Source of the DNA: Candidatus Omnitrophota bacterium
GTDB taxonomy: Bacteria; Omnitrophota; Omnitrophia; Omnitrophales; Danuiimicrobiaceae
DNA length: 35,407 bases
NCBI GenBank assembly: GCA_016177155.1
Contig: JACOVU010000029.1
Span: 1-35,407, forward strand
Direction: 5' to 3'
The position numbers and the translations under genes are program-made. How positions within the stretch are numbered: position 1 is the stretch's first letter; each line of letters opens with the position of its first letter. Of the stretch, positions 1,983 through 32,777 are shown piece after piece. The notes beneath the pieces are model-generated. The model saw only the letters and a program-made list of their open reading frames with translations. It did no database searches and was not told the origin of the DNA.

Positions 1983-2090
1983 TTATCCCACCACCTGCTT
2001 GTTTGCCACCTGTTGGTGGCAAATCTCTTTCGAGATGTAAGAGTGCGCGCTTAAAAGTGTGCGCTCTTATCAAGCAGGTGGTGGGATTAT
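1983..2090 (-). repeat. CCACCAC-family inverted-repeat element, promoter type, three internal hairpins
   Basis: Perfect 17-bp inverted repeat atcccaccacctgcttg (1985-2001) / caagcaggtggtgggat (2071-2087). ATAA direct repeats on the minus strand. Same layout as 30009-30115. Confidence 0.9.
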
Positions 2091-4253: not shown

Positions 4254-4653
4254 GTTCCGTCAGCTCCACAAGTTGGCAGATGCGCTTCACCAATTTTTCA
4301 ACATCTACAGGTTTTACAAAAAAATCAACCGCTCCTTCAATTCGGGTCATATTTTCAATCATGGGGGCTTTTCCCGTAATAACAATAATGGGAATATCCT
4401 TCGTCGACGAAGGCTTCCCGGTTTCAATATCAATGGGAGCTTTAAGCCGCTTCAGAATGGTCAGGCCGTCCGTATCGGGAAGAAAGACGTCCAGAATCAC
4501 CAGATCGGGTAATTTTTCTTGAATGAGATTAAACGCCTGATCGCCTTCGGTGGTCATCAAAACCCGATGTCCACTGGCTTCAATCCTTAGTTTTAAAAGT
4601 TGCGAAAATTCAATATCATCTTCAACAATGAATACCGTAGCTGGATGCGTCAT
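4231..4653 (-). CDS. Single-domain response regulator (REC)
   Basis: FIVEDD...PDLVILDVFLPDTDG...VITG...FFVKPVD. Confidence 0.92.
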   Translation of the reverse strand: MTHPATVFIVEDDIEFSQLLKLRIEASGHRVLMTTEGDQAFNLIQEKLPDLVILDVFLPDTDGLTILKRLKAPIDIETGKPSSTKDIPIIVITGKAPMIENMTRIEGAVDFFVKPVDVEKLVKRICQLVELTEHDRKSKS

Positions 4654-5867
4654 GTGGTTGCCCTTTCCGATGTAAACGAATTGGCTTCCCGTTGATTGGA
4701 ATGCGTGATTGGAATCGAAACGAGAAACCGACTCCCCTTCCCATATTCACTTTCAGCCCAAATATCGCCGCCATGCAGTTTGACGAGTTCTTTGCAAATG
4801 GAAAGGCCAAGACCTGTACCTCGATTTTCTTTTGTGCCTGCACCTTTCACCTGCTCAAAACGCTCGAACACCCGTTCCAAATCTTCTTTTTTAATCCCAA
4901 TGCCCGTATCGATCACACTGACTAAAACGCGGCCGTTTGGAGTTTGTTCCAGCTGGACCGTAATCGATCCGCCTTCGGGCGTAAACTTAATGGCATTGCC
5001 GACTAAATTCGCCAAGACTTGTACGATCCGTTCGGCATCGCATTCCACCTTGGGAAAAGGTTCGATCGGTTGAAACACAAGTTTGATCTGCTTTTTTCCT
5101 GCCAAGCTTCTCAGAGCTCCAAACACCTCGTCTACGAGGACTTGAACATCACACAATTCAAAATGAAGACGCATTTTTCCCGCCTCCAGTTTGGAGAAAT
5201 CAAGTAAATCATTAATCATGGCAGTCAGTCGTCTGAGACTCCGCTTTGCGATTTCGAGAACTTGCTTTCCTTTCTCTTTATGGGTATCCACAATCCCATC
5301 GAGAATGAGTGAGATACTTTCTTGTACGGCGTTTAGAGGCGTGCGGACATCGTGGCTGACAGAGGCAATAAAATCAGATTTCAATTGGTCCAGTTTTTTG
5401 AGTTCACGGTTTGCTTTCTCAAGCGCTGCATTCTTCTCGCGAATTTCACGTTCGTATCGCTCTTTCTCTTTGACCGCCAAGAACTTCAAAAAAGTTTCGC
5501 CGATGACGTGCGGCAATAAACTCAAATACAAATCGTCCTTGACGATGTAGTTGTACGCCCCTTCCTGCATGGCCTTAACTGCCGTTTTCTCATCCCCTCT
5601 CCCCGTCAGCATAATGAAGGGAATGTCAAGACGTTCTCCATTCATCCATTCGAGAAGCTCAAGTCCGCTTTTTCCGGGAAGGTTGTAGTCCGATATGACC
5701 ATGCTCACGTTACCGCCTTTCATTCTTTCGATCGCCTCTTCAACAGACCCAACTAATTCGACGCTATAGGCGTTTTCCTTGGAGGAGGTAATTGATTTCT
5801 GAGCCAGCAAAGCGTGATCGGGATTATCCTCCACCAGCAATAAATTGAGCATCAACCGATTAATCAT
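4650..5867 (-). CDS. Hybrid REC-histidine kinase (REC-HisKA-HATPase)
   Basis: N-terminal REC; H box SHDVRTPL, N box NLVGNAIKFT, G1 DTGIGI, G2 GTGLGLSI. Confidence 0.93.
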   Translation of the reverse strand: MINRLMLNLLLVEDNPDHALLAQKSITSSKENAYSVELVGSVEEAIERMKGGNVSMVISDYNLPGKSGLELLEWMNGERLDIPFIMLTGRGDEKTAVKAMQEGAYNYIVKDDLYLSLLPHVIGETFLKFLAVKEKERYEREIREKNAALEKANRELKKLDQLKSDFIASVSHDVRTPLNAVQESISLILDGIVDTHKEKGKQVLEIAKRSLRRLTAMINDLLDFSKLEAGKMRLHFELCDVQVLVDEVFGALRSLAGKKQIKLVFQPIEPFPKVECDAERIVQVLANLVGNAIKFTPEGGSITVQLEQTPNGRVLVSVIDTGIGIKKEDLERVFERFEQVKGAGTKENRGTGLGLSICKELVKLHGGDIWAESEYGKGSRFLVSIPITHSNQREANSFTSERATT

Positions 5868-8496: not shown

Positions 8497-10061
8497 GACC
8501 TCGCCTCCTTTAAAACGGCTTCGATCAAACCTGGAATGGTAGACACTTTTGCTTCTCGATCCACTTTTGCTCCAAACGCCAGAATGGTCTTCGAAGTAAC
8601 AGGCCCGATTGAGATGACCTTTGCTTCAATATGGCGTCCGTTCTTAAGCGCCTCAAAAAAATGCTGCGCGGTAGACGAGCTTGTGAAGGTGACATAATCA
8701 ATCGGGTATTGACGCACCAATTCCGCCACTCGGTGTTCGAGACCTGCTGGTTTTTCCGTCCGATAAACTGAAATTTCGGTCACTTGAGCGCCTAATTTCT
8801 TGAGTGAACGATTTAGAAAATCGGGTGCAATATTGGTCCTTAAAAGTAAAAACTTCTTTCGAGCGATCTTTAGTCCTTGAAAAGCGCGCACGAGACCTTC
8901 TGTGGTAAATACTTTTGGCACAAGATCTGGCTCGATCGAGAATGCATTCAGCTTTGCTTTTGTTCCTGGTCCCACCGCGGCAATCTTTAAGGAACTCAAA
9001 GTTCGGGTATCTTTCCCAAGTTCGCGAAATCGCTTAAAGAAAGCTTCCACACCATTTTCACTGGTGAATACAAGCCAATAATATTTCCGAATATTTTTAA
9101 CGGCTCGGTCCAAAGAGTGAAAATCGCGAATGGGGCTGACTTCAATGGTAGGAAGTTCCAAGACGCGCGCACCCAGGTTTTCTAATTCATCAGCAAGCTC
9201 GGAAGCTTGTTTTCGTGAACGGGTGACTAAAATCGTTTTTCCAAAAAGAGGTTTTTCCTCTCCGCCAGAATTCGGACGGATCCGTCCTTCGGCGGAAAAC
9301 CAGGCGAGTTTTCGACGCAAACGGTTCACTTCTCCAATTACGGTAATGGCGGGCGCTTGAAGTTTGGCTTCTTCTACTTTTTGAACAATGGTTGCGAGCG
9401 TGCCCGTCACAGTTCTCTGTTCCCCCGTTGTTCCCCACCGAATGACTGAAACGGGAGTTTTCCGTTTTCTTCCGTAACGAATCAACAAATCCACCACTTG
9501 GGGAAGTGCCTTCACCCCCATATAAAGCACGAGTGTTCCCTTGAGTTTCGCAAGGGCGTTCCAATTTAAATCTGAACCTTTTTTCGAAGGATCTTCGTGG
9601 GCTGTAATCAAAGTGACTTCGGAAGCAAGTTTGCGATGCGTCACTGGAATCCCCGCATAAGCAGGTGCTGCGATCCCTGCCGTAATGCCGGGGGAAATTT
9701 CAAAAGGAACTCGGTGGCGGGCGAGCCAAAGCGCTTCTTCTCCTCCTCTGCCAAAGACAAAGGGATCTCCCCCTTTCAAGCGAACGACACGCTTGCCTTC
9801 ACGTGCTAGCTTAACGAGCAAGGATTCAATCGACTTTTGCGGAGTCGAATCGGGATCACCGCCTTTTTTTCCAACATAAATCTGCTCGGCGTGCTCTGCA
9901 TGTCTTAAAATTTTTGGATGAACGAGATAATCATAGACCACCGCATCTGCTTCTTCGAGCACCTCTTTGGCGCGAAGCGTAAGCAGTTTCGGATCACCAG
10001 GGCCTGCGCCCACGATCGAAACAAAACCCTTTTTTTTCTGCAATCTACCTTTTTTCGCCAT
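8493..10061 (-). CDS. cobA: Fused uroporphyrinogen-III C-methyltransferase / uroporphyrinogen-III synthase (CobA-HemD)
   Basis: VGAGPGDP, RLKGGDPFVFGRGGEE; C-terminal HemD with ILVTRS, FTSENGV, VGPGT, FTSSST. Confidence 0.95.
   Translation of the reverse strand: MAKKGRLQKKKGFVSIVGAGPGDPKLLTLRAKEVLEEADAVVYDYLVHPKILRHAEHAEQIYVGKKGGDPDSTPQKSIESLLVKLAREGKRVVRLKGGDPFVFGRGGEEALWLARHRVPFEISPGITAGIAAPAYAGIPVTHRKLASEVTLITAHEDPSKKGSDLNWNALAKLKGTLVLYMGVKALPQVVDLLIRYGRKRKTPVSVIRWGTTGEQRTVTGTLATIVQKVEEAKLQAPAITVIGEVNRLRRKLAWFSAEGRIRPNSGGEEKPLFGKTILVTRSRKQASELADELENLGARVLELPTIEVSPIRDFHSLDRAVKNIRKYYWLVFTSENGVEAFFKRFRELGKDTRTLSSLKIAAVGPGTKAKLNAFSIEPDLVPKVFTTEGLVRAFQGLKIARKKFLLLRTNIAPDFLNRSLKKLGAQVTEISVYRTEKPAGLEHRVAELVRQYPIDYVTFTSSSTAQHFFEALKNGRHIEAKVISIGPVTSKTILAFGAKVDREAKVSTIPGLIEAVLKEARS
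9261..9296. repeat. 36-bp palindromic insert in frame within cobA/hemD
   Basis: tccgcc-agaattc-ggacggatccgtcc-ttc-ggcgga; encodes SAEGRIRPNSGG between WF and EEKPLFGK. Confidence 0.75.
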
Positions 10062-13116: not shown

Positions 13117-13698
13117 CTATTTCCCCGTTTCAAGCAATTTAAATTCTGATGCCACTACTTTTTTAAAATGATTGCGGCGCGCCTCGGGAGCGTTTAAGGA
13201 TTGTTTGGTCTTCATGCGATCCTTGGACAATTTTTGTACCAAAGCAGAATATTTTGAACCAAATTCCTTTTCTAGTTTTTTCCGAAGCGTCTTGGCCAAA
13301 AGAGGACTTGCCCCTCCTGTTGAAATCGCGATTTGAAGTTTCCCGCGCTGAATGATCGACGGCACAATAAAAGTCGAATGCGTTGGATCATCTACCACAT
13401 TCACAAAAATCCCTTTTTTCTCGCACCATTCAAAAATAGTTCGGTTGAGCGCCTCATCTGAAGTTGCTGCCACCACAAGCTCAGGATTTTCTCCTTGCGG
13501 GATCTGAGATCCAAACCGAATATCGATTTTATTCGCCCGAGCAAACCGCTTAAAAGCCTTTGAACAATCATGGCTGATCACCAAAAGTTTTGCCCCTGCT
13601 TTGATCAGCGTCCGCGCCTTCCGAAGAGCCACGCCACCTCCTCCGAAAAGGAGCACTTTCTTTCCCTGAAGTTTAAGAAAAGCAGGATAGTATTTCAT
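13117..13698 (-). CDS. Precorrin-2 dehydrogenase / sirohydrochlorin ferrochelatase (SirC/Met8/CysG N-terminal family)
   Basis: MKYYPAFL, GGGGVALRK, VNVVDDP...FIVPS, AISTGGASP. True start is ATG 13698; the ORF extension to 13755 is repeat sequence. Confidence 0.93.
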   Translation of the reverse strand: MKYYPAFLKLQGKKVLLFGGGGVALRKARTLIKAGAKLLVISHDCSKAFKRFARANKIDIRFGSQIPQGENPELVVAATSDEALNRTIFEWCEKKGIFVNVVDDPTHSTFIVPSIIQRGKLQIAISTGGASPLLAKTLRKKLEKEFGSKYSALVQKLSKDRMKTKQSLNAPEARRNHFKKVVASEFKLLETGK

Positions 13699-13808
13699 CC
13701 CCCACCACTTTCCAAAAATAAATCTGACAGCAATGCCGTCGTTATTGATGGACAATAAACATTATATTCGTAGTTCAATGCGTAGTATAAAAAGTGGTGG
13801 GGGATCAT
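13695..13808 (-). repeat. CCACCAC-family stop-to-start inverted-repeat element, copy 1
   Basis: Minus strand: ATGA TCCCCCACCACTTT - 79 nt - AAAGTGGTGGGGG ATGA. Confidence 0.92.
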
Positions 13809-15226
13809 ATAAATTTAAGACGGTTCCTCTCTAAGAATTCCTCAAACTCATTTTCCAACGTGAACTTTGGAATCACCCGCAACCCGCTCAACTCTTCCGC
13901 CGCTTCGATCGTTTCCTGATCCACAGGATCAACCATGGCAAGCTCCAGTGCATCATCTTTGATCGTGATCGGAACAACCCGATGATCGCGCACAAACTCC
14001 TCAGTTAAAATGCGGGCGAGGTCTTCGGTTAAAATATGGTTCTTAAGGCTCACATAACCCACTGAGAATTTCGACTCAAGCAGCTTCCCGACTTCACTGC
14101 TCGAAACCGCATTCATCCGAATCAGAACTTGACCGATTCTCTCCCCGGTTTCGACATGACGTTTGACTGCTTGATTGAGTTCTATTTCCGTAATGAGCCC
14201 TGCATCAAGCAACAACTGCCCAAGCGGTTTTGAGGTATCGCGCTTCTCATCGCTGGGTGAAAGCACTTCCAGGGACTCTTGAAGCGAGCTCAAGGGCATT
14301 TCTCGTCGATCGCGAAGATAATGACTTCCAGGTTGCGTCTTAAGATAAGCTTTCACTTCTGCGGCGTCACGAGCAACCTCCGCCATGCTGCGGTACGGCC
14401 GGTACAGATTCGTTACCGCTGCGATCGAAAGACTCATCAAAGGAAAAGAAACAGGAACACCGCTCCTGTTTTTCACGAGGACGGATTTACGTTTTCGGTC
14501 TGCATCCTCATAATGCGTCGGAATAATTCGGTCAAACTCTTGAAGGCAAAGTTGGGCAAAACGAGTTTCGTGATCCGTATCCGTCACCACTACAAAATCA
14601 TCACCTCCAATGTGGCCGAAAAAACTATTCCGATCCGCTTCGCTCAATTCAAGACATCTTGCAATCAATTGAGCCGTATGCCGAATCACTTGATCTCCCC
14701 GTTCAAATCCATATCGATCATTAAAAGATTTAAAGTGGTTGATATCCATATAACAAACCGAGAAAAGTTCACTTCGATCAATGCGTTTTCGAATGTTTTC
14801 TTCAATCGCAATACTACCGGGCAGGTTGGTAAGCGGATTCGCCTGAAGCCGTTCGCGGGCGCGGGTGAGATTGAGTTCAATCCGGAGTTGGAGCGAAAAG
14901 GCATCAAAGGGTTTAATCAAAAAATCGTCAAACCCGCGGTCGCGGCTCAAAACGAGCTCTCTGACTTCATTCTCCTCGGCCAACAACATAATCGGAACGC
15001 CCAGGCCGGTAATGCTCTGCTTCATTTTTTTGGCGAGGTTCACCCCATCCACCTCTTCCATCGTCGTACCCATTAAGACGAGATCGAAGCGAACCTTTTG
15101 AACCAAGCGAATCGCCTCATCGCTATGGGTGGCAATAAATACATCATAATTTCGAGCCAGAAGTCTCGCCTCTAGAAGAGCGAGCGTATCTGAATCTTTC
15201 TCTGCAATTAAAATTTTGTAACTCAT
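13805..15226 (-). CDS. Atypical REC - GGDEF - MshEN/T2SSE_N fusion (putative diguanylate cyclase)
   Basis: REC-like N-terminus; NPLTNLPG, DINHFKSFNDRYG, GHIGGDDF; C-terminal PLGQLLLDAGLIT...ERIGQVLI and LAMVDP. Confidence 0.88.
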   Translation of the reverse strand: MSYKILIAEKDSDTLALLEARLLARNYDVFIATHSDEAIRLVQKVRFDLVLMGTTMEEVDGVNLAKKMKQSITGLGVPIMLLAEENEVRELVLSRDRGFDDFLIKPFDAFSLQLRIELNLTRARERLQANPLTNLPGSIAIEENIRKRIDRSELFSVCYMDINHFKSFNDRYGFERGDQVIRHTAQLIARCLELSEADRNSFFGHIGGDDFVVVTDTDHETRFAQLCLQEFDRIIPTHYEDADRKRKSVLVKNRSGVPVSFPLMSLSIAAVTNLYRPYRSMAEVARDAAEVKAYLKTQPGSHYLRDRREMPLSSLQESLEVLSPSDEKRDTSKPLGQLLLDAGLITEIELNQAVKRHVETGERIGQVLIRMNAVSSSEVGKLLESKFSVGYVSLKNHILTEDLARILTEEFVRDHRVVPITIKDDALELAMVDPVDQETIEAAEELSGLRVIPKFTLENEFEEFLERNRLKFI

Positions 15227-15307
15227 CCCCCACCACTTTTCCTGATTAACTTTTCCAATCTAATCTTAGATCCGCTCACCAAATTGCAAAAAGTGGTGGG
15301 GGATCAT
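15223..15307 (-). repeat. CCACCAC-family stop-to-start inverted-repeat element, copy 2
   Basis: Minus strand: ATGA TCCCCCACCACTTT - 50 nt - AAAGTGGTGGGGG ATGA. Confidence 0.92.
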
Positions 15308-16101
15308 CCCTTAAAACTCTCCTTCGATGAAGGAAAATGCTTTGAAAGTACATCTTTGCGATACTCGAGGACAGCTTTCCGAACAGCTTCACTCAAGTAA
15401 GCATATTGCCTGACAAACCGCGGTTTCACTTGAGATTCAAAACCAAGCATGTCATGAAGAACCAGGACTTGACCGTCTGTACTTGGCCCAGCTCCAATCC
15501 CGATCGTTGGAATCCTGAGTCCTTTCGTAATCCGCTTCGCCAGTGAATTTGGAACACATTCTAAGACAATCGAAAAAACACCCGCTCGCTCAAGCATCTT
15601 TGCGTCTTCGAAAATCCGCTCTGCTTCTTCTTCGGTCTTTCCCTGCACTTTATAGCCGCCGAGTTCGCGGACCGACTGTGGAAGCATGCCTAAATGCCCC
15701 ATCACGGGGACTCCAGCGCGAAGAATCGCCTGTACTTGCTTTAAAACTTTCTTGCCGCCTTCTAATTTCACTGCCTGAGCGCCCGCTTTTTTAAATTGCT
15801 TGGCGTTTGCCACTGCTACTTTCACATTGGAATAAGACCGGTACGGCATATCAACGACCAGAAAAGAACGGTGAACCGCACGGCGTGCTGCCTTCAAATG
15901 ATGGAGCATCTCTTCCATCGTAACGGGAAGTGTAGTCTCATAACCTAAAACTACCATCCCGAGCGAATCCCCAACGAGAACAATATCCACTCCCGCTTCG
16001 TCAACAATCTTGGCAAAGGGAAAATCATAGGCAGTTAAAACTGTGATTTTCCGCCGCTTTCTTTTCAAACCTATGATATTCCGAACGGTCATCCGATCCA
16101 T
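15304..16101 (-). CDS. panB: 3-methyl-2-oxobutanoate hydroxymethyltransferase
   Basis: LTAYD, LVGDSLGMV, AVKLEGG, MGHLG, TIGIGAG...DGQVLVLHDMLG. Confidence 0.97.
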   Translation of the reverse strand: MDRMTVRNIIGLKRKRRKITVLTAYDFPFAKIVDEAGVDIVLVGDSLGMVVLGYETTLPVTMEEMLHHLKAARRAVHRSFLVVDMPYRSYSNVKVAVANAKQFKKAGAQAVKLEGGKKVLKQVQAILRAGVPVMGHLGMLPQSVRELGGYKVQGKTEEEAERIFEDAKMLERAGVFSIVLECVPNSLAKRITKGLRIPTIGIGAGPSTDGQVLVLHDMLGFESQVKPRFVRQYAYLSEAVRKAVLEYRKDVLSKHFPSSKESFKG

Positions 16102-29985: not shown

Positions 29986-30013
29986 TTGATCTTGGCTGGG
30001 AAACTGCTATAAT
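29986..30013 (+). promoter_or_regulatory. Promoter for ino1 (extended -10)
   Basis: TTGATC - 16 nt - TATAAT, with TG one base upstream of the -10 (TGcTATAAT). Confidence 0.65.
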
Positions 30014-30115
30014 CCCACCACTTGTTTGACAAGAACGCGATTTATGAACAAGCGCGTTCTTGTGTCTCTTCGAGATTTCACCCCGCACGGGATGAACAAA
30101 CAGGTGGTGGGATAA
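30009..30115 (+). repeat. CCACCAC-family inverted-repeat element, promoter type, three internal hairpins
   Basis: ATAA-TCCCACCACTTGTTTG ... CAAACAGGTGGTGGG-ATAA; same layout as 1983-2090. Confidence 0.9.
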
Positions 30116-32010: not shown

Positions 32011-32727
32011 TCACATTCTCAAGATGTTCCTCGCGTTCCCGCTGAAAACAGGCTCGCGCTTGGAGGATGGAAGTAAATATTCAAACTTTTTGATCTCGAG
32101 CCCCAAGTGGGAATAGGGAATGTCAGAAGCAAATACCACTTTATGCGCTCCCACTTCCCGAAGGATTTGCCCGGTTCGGTAGTAAGAAAGTGTAGAGGTA
32201 TCTAAATAAACGTTTTTAAGCTCTTTCGCGATCTCGATCGCCTCTCGAAATAAATCTTTCCCCGAATGAGCCAGTACAAAAAAAGTCCTGGGATAAGCTT
32301 TAAAAATATGATGCCACTCGCTTGGGTGGCAATTGGGTTCGTGGCCCGTATGGAGTACTACCGCTAATCGCTTTTGGTCAATCGCTTCAAAAAGAGGTTT
32401 CGCTAGGTGGGCATTGAACCGATCCGAACGCGGATGAAGTTTGACCGCCCGAAAGCCTAAGCGGACGGCGTGGTCAATCTCTTCAAAAGAAGCTTTCTTC
32501 TCATTGGGATTAAGTCTGGCGCACCCGATCAAACTCCGCTCGCGTTCAATCACTCGGGCAATCTTCCGGTTCATCCGAGCATAAGCAGGACCGGGACTTG
32601 CTTCATCAATCGGAAATATAACGCTCTTTGCAACCCCAAAACGCCTCATCACGTTCAGCATATCAGAAAGCGTTTGGCGTGCGCCATCGCGTGAATGGCC
32701 CAAGTGGGTGTGGAAATCGATGATCAT
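32011..32727 (-). CDS. Metal-dependent amidohydrolase (Amidohydro_2-like TIM barrel)
   Basis: IDFHTH, AVKLHP, VLHTG, LAHSG, YLDTS, VFASDIPY, GNARNIL. Confidence 0.9.
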   Translation of the reverse strand: MIIDFHTHLGHSRDGARQTLSDMLNVMRRFGVAKSVIFPIDEASPGPAYARMNRKIARVIERERSLIGCARLNPNEKKASFEEIDHAVRLGFRAVKLHPRSDRFNAHLAKPLFEAIDQKRLAVVLHTGHEPNCHPSEWHHIFKAYPRTFFVLAHSGKDLFREAIEIAKELKNVYLDTSTLSYYRTGQILREVGAHKVVFASDIPYSHLGLEIKKFEYLLPSSKREPVFSGNARNILRM

Positions 32728-32777
32728 CCCCCACCACTTTTCAGGTTGATAGATTCAAGAAAGTGGTGGGGGATCAT
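32724..32777 (-). repeat. CCACCAC-family stop-to-start inverted-repeat element, copy 3
   Basis: Minus strand: ATGA TCCCCCACCACTTT - 19 nt - AAAGTGGTGGGGG ATGA. Confidence 0.92.

Follow-up and report, generated by a model that had tools for sequence, protein, structure and literature searches.

The three genes considered here lie on the minus strand of the window, the whole 35,407-nucleotide stretch that was analyzed. They are, in reading order, panB (15304..16101, 265 aa), a REC-GGDEF-MshEN signalling gene (13805..15226, 473 aa) and a sirC-like gene for a siroheme synthase N-terminal domain (13117..13698, 193 aa). A repeat of 78 bp, copy 2 (15226..15303, minus strand), occupies the junction between panB and the signalling gene. 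Copy 1, of 107 bp (13698..13804, minus strand), starts directly after the TGA of the signalling gene and rebuilds the ATG at which the sirC-like gene starts. A preliminary description of this DNA had panB ending in GGA TGA, followed by a repeat and then by the ATG of the signalling gene, with copies 1 and 2 flanking that gene from start to stop; this arrangement was confirmed on the minus strand and the coordinates agree. The interiors of the two copies are unrelated, as had also been stated (no link at z ≥ 5). The repeats recognized there are real, but the genome-wide family to which they belong, the frame that runs through its members and the long copies that carry a nuclease had been missed. 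The signalling gene is a resident gene and not cargo. Its cyclase motif reads GGDDF and is followed by the MshEN domain; cyclase activity is putative.

The inverted arms of copy 2 are perfect over 15 bp and enclose an AT-rich interior. The upstream arm (15289..15303, minus strand) pairs with the downstream arm (15226..15240, minus strand) to form the stem of a predicted transcript fold of −37.8 kcal/mol (z −5.67), and the new start codon is buried in this stem. The triplet TGA is repeated on each side of 15226-15303. Its first occurrence belongs to the ATGA at 15304..15307 (minus strand), where the panB stop codon (15306-15304) overlaps the presumed original start codon of the signalling gene (15307-15305). 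The second (15225-15223) overlaps the rebuilt ATG (15226-15224) within 15223..15226 (minus strand). The ATG of the signalling gene thus consists of the last A of copy 2, which ends the downstream arm, followed by TG. The downstream arm is G-rich and SD-like, scoring −6.3 kcal/mol where the sequence originally upstream gives −3.8 kcal/mol; the assembly yielded no 16S 3′ end, so both values refer to a generic anti-SD motif. An Rfam search of the window gave no match.

Five copies of the family lie in the window, and the arm motif occurs there six times with at most two mismatches, against 0.36 expected. Copy 3 (47 bp, 32727..32773, minus strand) has the arm type of copy 2. It contains an intact relay ORF of 17 aa, a small frame leading from the old start codon to the new one; that of copy 1 (13808-13695) is also intact and encodes 37 aa. 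The two other members have a second arm type and are flanked by TAA, one at 1986..2086 (minus strand) and one at 30013..30112 (plus strand), ahead of an inositol-phosphate synthase gene.

The genome as a whole (G000; 1.38 Mb, 86% complete) contains at least 80 paired inverted-repeat copies of 47–329 bp, as well as unpaired arms, many at contig ends. The count is a minimum because pairing missed two near-identical copies with degenerate arms (C69 near 8965-9071 and C101 near 4590-4699). The arm type of copy 2 is found in 19/80 copies, whose interiors are AT-rich and mostly unrelated; the remaining copies have the second arm type and hairpin-rich interiors. The only relative of copy 2 is a sister on another contig (C124:3050-3128, 86% identity), not copy 1. 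Related copies occur in both orientations, with 81 links in the same and 35 in the opposite sense. Capture of interiors from host genes was considered and rejected; the interiors match other copies only. Both arms change together in 75/80 copies, which suggests that one arm is copied from the other in the hairpin state or that pairing is under selection.

The 3-nt flanks are identical in 77/80 copies (TGA/TCA in 65, TAA/TTA in 11, TGG in one), a pattern that fits a 3-nt target duplication. Its exact length is taken from the family flanks, because the panB junctions of relatives read TGATG, TAATG or have short spacers in place of ATGA. A 4-nt duplication of ATGA was rejected: the left flank is GTGA or TTGA in 8/66 copies, while the right is always ATG. 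The copies have the structural features of MITEs, being short and multicopy with terminal inverted repeats, identical flanks and both filled and empty orthologous sites. Across the phylum their distribution is patchy, with six or more arm matches in 11/401 genomes. Viral contigs gave nine single-arm matches and no paired ones.

Some copies depart from the simple layout. Tandem pairs were seen in which one copy sits right behind the downstream arm of another with a TGA between them (C124:3050-3257 and C69:10325-10519 of this genome; L028/L052). Several longer copies have inner CGTC-type palindromic repeats, which we take to be REP-like, with the relay mostly still open (C69:10329-10519, C123:19608-19795, C47:9748-9893 and C69:24019-24164 of this genome); L067 and L208 are likewise longer copies with inner palindromic repeats. 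Genome G011 has a uniform 54-bp subfamily with the arms of copy 2 (L069, L076, L080, L082, L084, L086), in which the flanks are often unrepeated and the lengths are in frame with the downstream ATG. Half of the TAA-flanked copies of this genome (6/12) lie within a TATAAT hexamer, and their relay frames are mostly absent.

The siting of the copies follows start codons closely. Reading from the host ATG leads into the element, whose last A together with the repeated TG forms a rebuilt ATG. The base ahead of the TGA in 66 TGA copies is A in 58, G in six and T in two, as expected of ATG, GTG and TTG. From the rebuilt ATG a frame runs for 80 codons or to the contig end in 57/66 TGA copies, compared with 20% of all TGAs. 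The TGA is also an in-frame stop in 41/66; long frame and in-frame stop occur together in 36/66, against 0.6% of all TGAs.

The lengths of the copies also suit this position. In 43/66 TGA copies the length phase ends the frame from the old start on the second TGA (p 1.3e-7), and an unbroken relay mini-ORF joins the old to the new start in 41/66, i.e., in 41/43 of those in phase. An insertion at a start codon with an internal ORF at −4 spacing, the arrangement described for mycobacterial interspersed repetitive units (MIRUs), is present in 41/66 copies and broken in copy 2. Compared with shuffled interiors, the frame was open in 29/31 copies against 5.6 and in 10/10 against 1.6, about one shuffle in six being open. 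When copies were flipped, it was open in 20/43. The TAA copies had an open relay frame in just 1/5. At most one frameshift would restore 22/23 of the out-of-phase copies compared with about 11.7 expected, and seven of these 22 are in-frame fusions. Metagenomic copies with the arm type of copy 2 gave a similar picture. TGA is repeated in 53 of the at least 64 distinct paired copies listed; 47 have the right length, and 44 of these are open, against 7.7 when shuffled. The metagenome set comprises at least 126 loci, with many matches from few samples; besides the 64 paired copies, from which loci labelled as host gut were left out, the arm matches listed include 52 with no partner and nine duplicates.

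Copy 2 is one of the out-of-phase members. Reading from the old ATG, its cut-down relay mini-ORF (15266..15307, minus strand; predicted translation) has 13 codons and stops 39 nt ahead of the rebuilt ATG. The frame that ends on the second TGA is free of stops for all 26 codons (15223..15303, minus strand) and is likely the remnant of a relay ORF, one frameshift off register. The break is no assembly slip, because the interior is identical in contigs of three runs.

Two long copies of the second arm type (320 and 329 bp, on contigs C78 and C70) encode proteins of 108 and 111 aa. Both proteins match the Pfam GIY-YIG family (E 1e-14), and profile, alignment and model searches describe them as single-domain GIY-YIG nucleases of about 100 aa. 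Their ORFs run from the host ATG to the second TGA, so that the arms supply the first and last codons. Arm-encoded ends were present on both sides in 43/64 nuclease homologs. In L055 and L057 the ends are C...G, and this variant restores a GTG start. Residues Y16, Y27, G29, R37, H41 and E61 are invariant in 35 aligned homologs. The best solved relatives are prokaryotic Slx1-like/UPF0213 proteins (PDB 1zg2 and 1ywl; E 3.9e-16, Foldseek rank 1), and the nearest homologs with a name carry Omnitrophota and Planctomycetia in their titles.

The nuclease gene and the arms occur together. All of the top eight nuclease matches in 401 phylum genomes lie between arms, and the gene is present in 5/11 genomes with six or more arm matches compared with 1/390 others, although kin among these genomes are not independent. 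Short copies of the second arm type share 26–69 bp at their ends with the long ones. A nuclease copy with the exact TGA-flanked ends of copy 2 was found neither among the 19 copies of this arm type in the genome nor in 99 genomes of the class. None occurred among the at least 64 paired metagenome copies listed, where short flanks could hide long copies at 46/126 loci. GIY-YIG remnants were sought in the short interiors of copy 2's arm type, and the scores were no better than those of shuffles. The nearest link to copy 2 is provided by GIY-YIG genes with near-identical arms in a different setting (L239, G224:C83; L242, G119:C1).

Taken together, these observations suggest that copy 2 probably arose by an insertion of its own, since then partly decayed, of a miniature mobile element with start codons as its landing sites. 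It would have duplicated the TGA of an NTGA site, with the last base of the element rebuilding the ATG, and the gene downstream is predicted to remain translated. In an intact copy, ribosomes coming from the old start would unfold the hairpin and pass to the new start, and such a hand-over would make the insertion cheap for the host. In copy 2, a ribosome that translates the 13-codon mini-ORF would sit over the upstream arm all the same and release its SD-like downstream partner, which could then act as a ribosome-binding site. The nuclease, made from the host's initiation signal, would nick the hairpin ends in single-stranded DNA and could mobilize short copies in trans, leaving host repair to finish the reaction. 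GIY-YIG enzymes hydrolyse DNA, however, and are not known to perform strand transfer. We infer current mobility, translational hand-over, active targeting and nuclease-driven movement alike from sequence. More tentatively, and at somewhat less than even confidence, the family could represent a new class of ultra-small transposon whose sole enzyme is a GIY-YIG protein of about 110 aa, which targets start codons, borrows the host's RBS and ATG and hands the ribosome on. Copy 2's arm type would then be a pared-down version that needs nothing but its 15-bp arms and an open frame, with almost any sequence tolerated in between.

The preliminary description had offered two explanations for the bracketed signalling gene, independent insertions or a composite cassette, and relatives that keep the gene order with no repeats support the former and not the latter. 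As a cassette, copies 1 and 2 would be recombination sites that add or remove REC-GGDEF-MshEN in the manner of attC sites. The exact bracketing of an ORF by both copies, seen for five ORFs in the genome, would suit such a unit, and direct repeats of 15–17 bp could recombine by accident. Nevertheless, the comparison of gene order that had been set beforehand showed panB, REC-GGDEF-MshEN and sirC in the same order, with neither repeat, in 4/4 same-genus genomes that have the locus (G001, G002, G004 and G005, with tight junctions; G003 gave no match). These are relatives at about 60–70% protein identity, and G004 has an ATGA overlap at the site of copy 1. More widely, a signalling gene follows panB in 12/19 panB loci of relatives, and the element follows the panB stop in 0/19. 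In favor of a cassette, panB directly meets sirC in 3/19, so gain or loss of the signalling gene has occurred at some depth; these three genomes are all more distant (L013, L019, L020) and their junctions have no such repeat. The four other genes of this genome bracketed alike are ordinary housekeeping genes, with family matches to Sua5, a KH-domain GTPase (presumably Era), a Kdo transferase and a hexapeptide-repeat protein. The attC cores RYYYAAC and GTTRRRY were found at the ends of 0/80 copies. No integron integrase was found in the 86%-complete genome, whose two tyrosine recombinases (PF00589 matches) score best as XerD and XerC (catalytic domains). Contigs, which drop rare variants, from four runs of one study, two of them perhaps the source of the genome, showed no same-species empty site and no joint that removes the element or the gene. 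One joint resembles an excision (13712 to 15287), but the interior found in it is that of another copy (C58:13413). In run X4, a low-depth contig (record 29) joins the 5′ end of the signalling gene to letters of the sister copy, as recombination might, but may be a mis-join through 38 nt common to the sisters. A cassette is accordingly hardly credible here. Because close relatives keep the gene order in their absence, copies 1 and 2 most likely inserted separately. The signalling gene would have a copy at either end because each of its two junctions offered a suitable NTGA site.

Other explanations concern the family as a whole. Its members might be ordinary MITEs moved in trans by an unseen DDE or HUH transposase, with the GIY-YIG gene as a passenger or a homing-type helper. 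Terminal inverted repeats and a short duplication are typical of MITEs in the part of the literature available (PMC2229807), the genome is 86% complete, and the sets searched yielded no nuclease copy with the ends of copy 2. On the other hand, PF01609 (DDE_Tnp_1) had no match in G000, G003 or G005. With PF01797, the other transposase family searched, G000 gave one partial Y1 match with no arm nearby; G011 had two Y1 matches, also with no arms near either. The GIY-YIG gene is the only one found between arms, which are its first and last codons, and an unseen transposase appears unlikely. The host might instead have evolved the hairpins as devices for translational coupling or attenuation and kept them for regulation, as the stable predicted stems over the start codon, the joint change of the arms in 75/80 copies and the open frames would allow. 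The hairpins are, however, absent from the same junctions in same-genus genomes and patchy over the 401 genomes, and copies precede unrelated genes in both orientations. A regulatory origin is very improbable, although single copies may have been co-opted later. A separate question is whether the element targets start codons or inserts at any TRA triplet, with selection alone leaving the copies at starts. Selection would remove insertions inside genes, 12 copies lie at TAA mostly away from gene ends, and relay frames kept open imply that selection acts once the element is in place. Against this, 57/66 TGA copies are at starts even though about 10,500 TGA/TCA triplets lie outside long ORFs; TGA stops number 344 and NTGA overlaps 115, compared with the same figure of about 10,500, which comes from a crude ORF caller that overcounts non-coding DNA. 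Selection with no targeting is considered rather unlikely.

The proposed element shares features with several known systems. MIRUs insert at start codons, where their ORF is coupled to the host gene at −4 nt and expression is little disturbed, according to the sections available of a 2025 review (PMC12548453). The present copies resemble them as short, seemingly mobile repeats at start codons with a coupled ORF. They differ in having inverted arms at their ends whose hairpin covers the new start, in occurring in both orientations and in having long copies with a GIY-YIG gene, none of which is named for MIRUs in those sections of the description (PMC12548453). Ssn is a single-domain GIY-YIG protein of about 100 aa whose gene has its own dispersed NTS/SRM repeats on either side, in a layout noted as IS-like; the portion of the study available demonstrates cleavage, not movement (PMC11893778). 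A single-domain GIY-YIG protein of this size with its own many-copy repeats is likewise found here. In contrast to Ssn as described there, the ORF includes the repeats as its end codons, the host start codon is used and the arms are unlike the NTS motif. The words 'start codon' and 'duplication' are absent from the Ssn paper (PMC11893778).

Bacterial MITEs (Correia/NEMIS, ERIC, RUP, RPE and YPAL) are described, in the text available, as elements of <200 bp with terminal inverted repeats, target duplication, stem-loop transcripts and, in some, ORFs (PMC2229807). All of these traits, including the small size, recur in the present family. It differs in repeating a TGA/TAA triplet instead of TA, in its strong start-codon bias, in the relay frame and in that no DDE transposase partner was found by the PF01609 search of G000, G003 and G005. 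The UPF0213/Slx1-like GIY-YIG proteins, as far as the account available describes them (PMC1564403), are the nuclease's best matches in sequence and fold; distinct from them are its arm-encoded N- and C-terminal tails and its residence in a dispersed element. Integron attC sites are palindromes of 57–141 bp with a variable center adjoining an ORF (PMC3053210, in part), and the copies share the palindrome with a variable center beside an ORF. Unlike attC, they lack RYYYAAC/GTTRRRY cores, no integrase was found and the genes they flank are resident housekeeping genes. By analogy, the family may work like MIRUs while having an Ssn-like gene layout. The literature covered, which comprised main texts with most subscription journals outside the coverage, yielded no account of a GIY-YIG element sited at start codons, and the family is apparently undescribed.

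If the nuclease does move the element, GIY-YIG would become one of the few transposase chemistries, here housed in about 320 bp, and a role would be suggested for many small orphan GIY-YIG genes. It would also be a candidate mobilizer for the MIRU-like habit of start-codon insertion. The 80 insertions offer a natural series for tests of translational coupling, and the short arms could be used for engineered insertions that leave the host gene intact. In annotation, gene callers can misplace starts at element sites, and a pair of copies may pass for a gene cassette, as happened around REC-GGDEF-MshEN.

A few further observations were made at related loci. Different hairpin repeats follow the panB stop at the same junction in two relatives (L005, L011), and the junction may therefore be an insertion hotspot. 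In L004 (G005:C31), the REC-GGDEF-MshEN ortholog aligns in two pieces (1-83 and 126-455), with a shortened receiver domain. Elsewhere, small GIY-YIG genes with their own ATG lie between inverted arms and are seemingly nested in a larger repeat (L234-L237, L239, L241-L243), which suggests a wider family of GIY-YIG mini-elements. At loci of other small GIY-YIG genes, tRNA genes are present in 9/14 (L031, L034, L036-L038, L043, L045, L048, L049), compared with 0/4 loci of the arm type. Several of these tRNA genes abut the stop codon of the nuclease.
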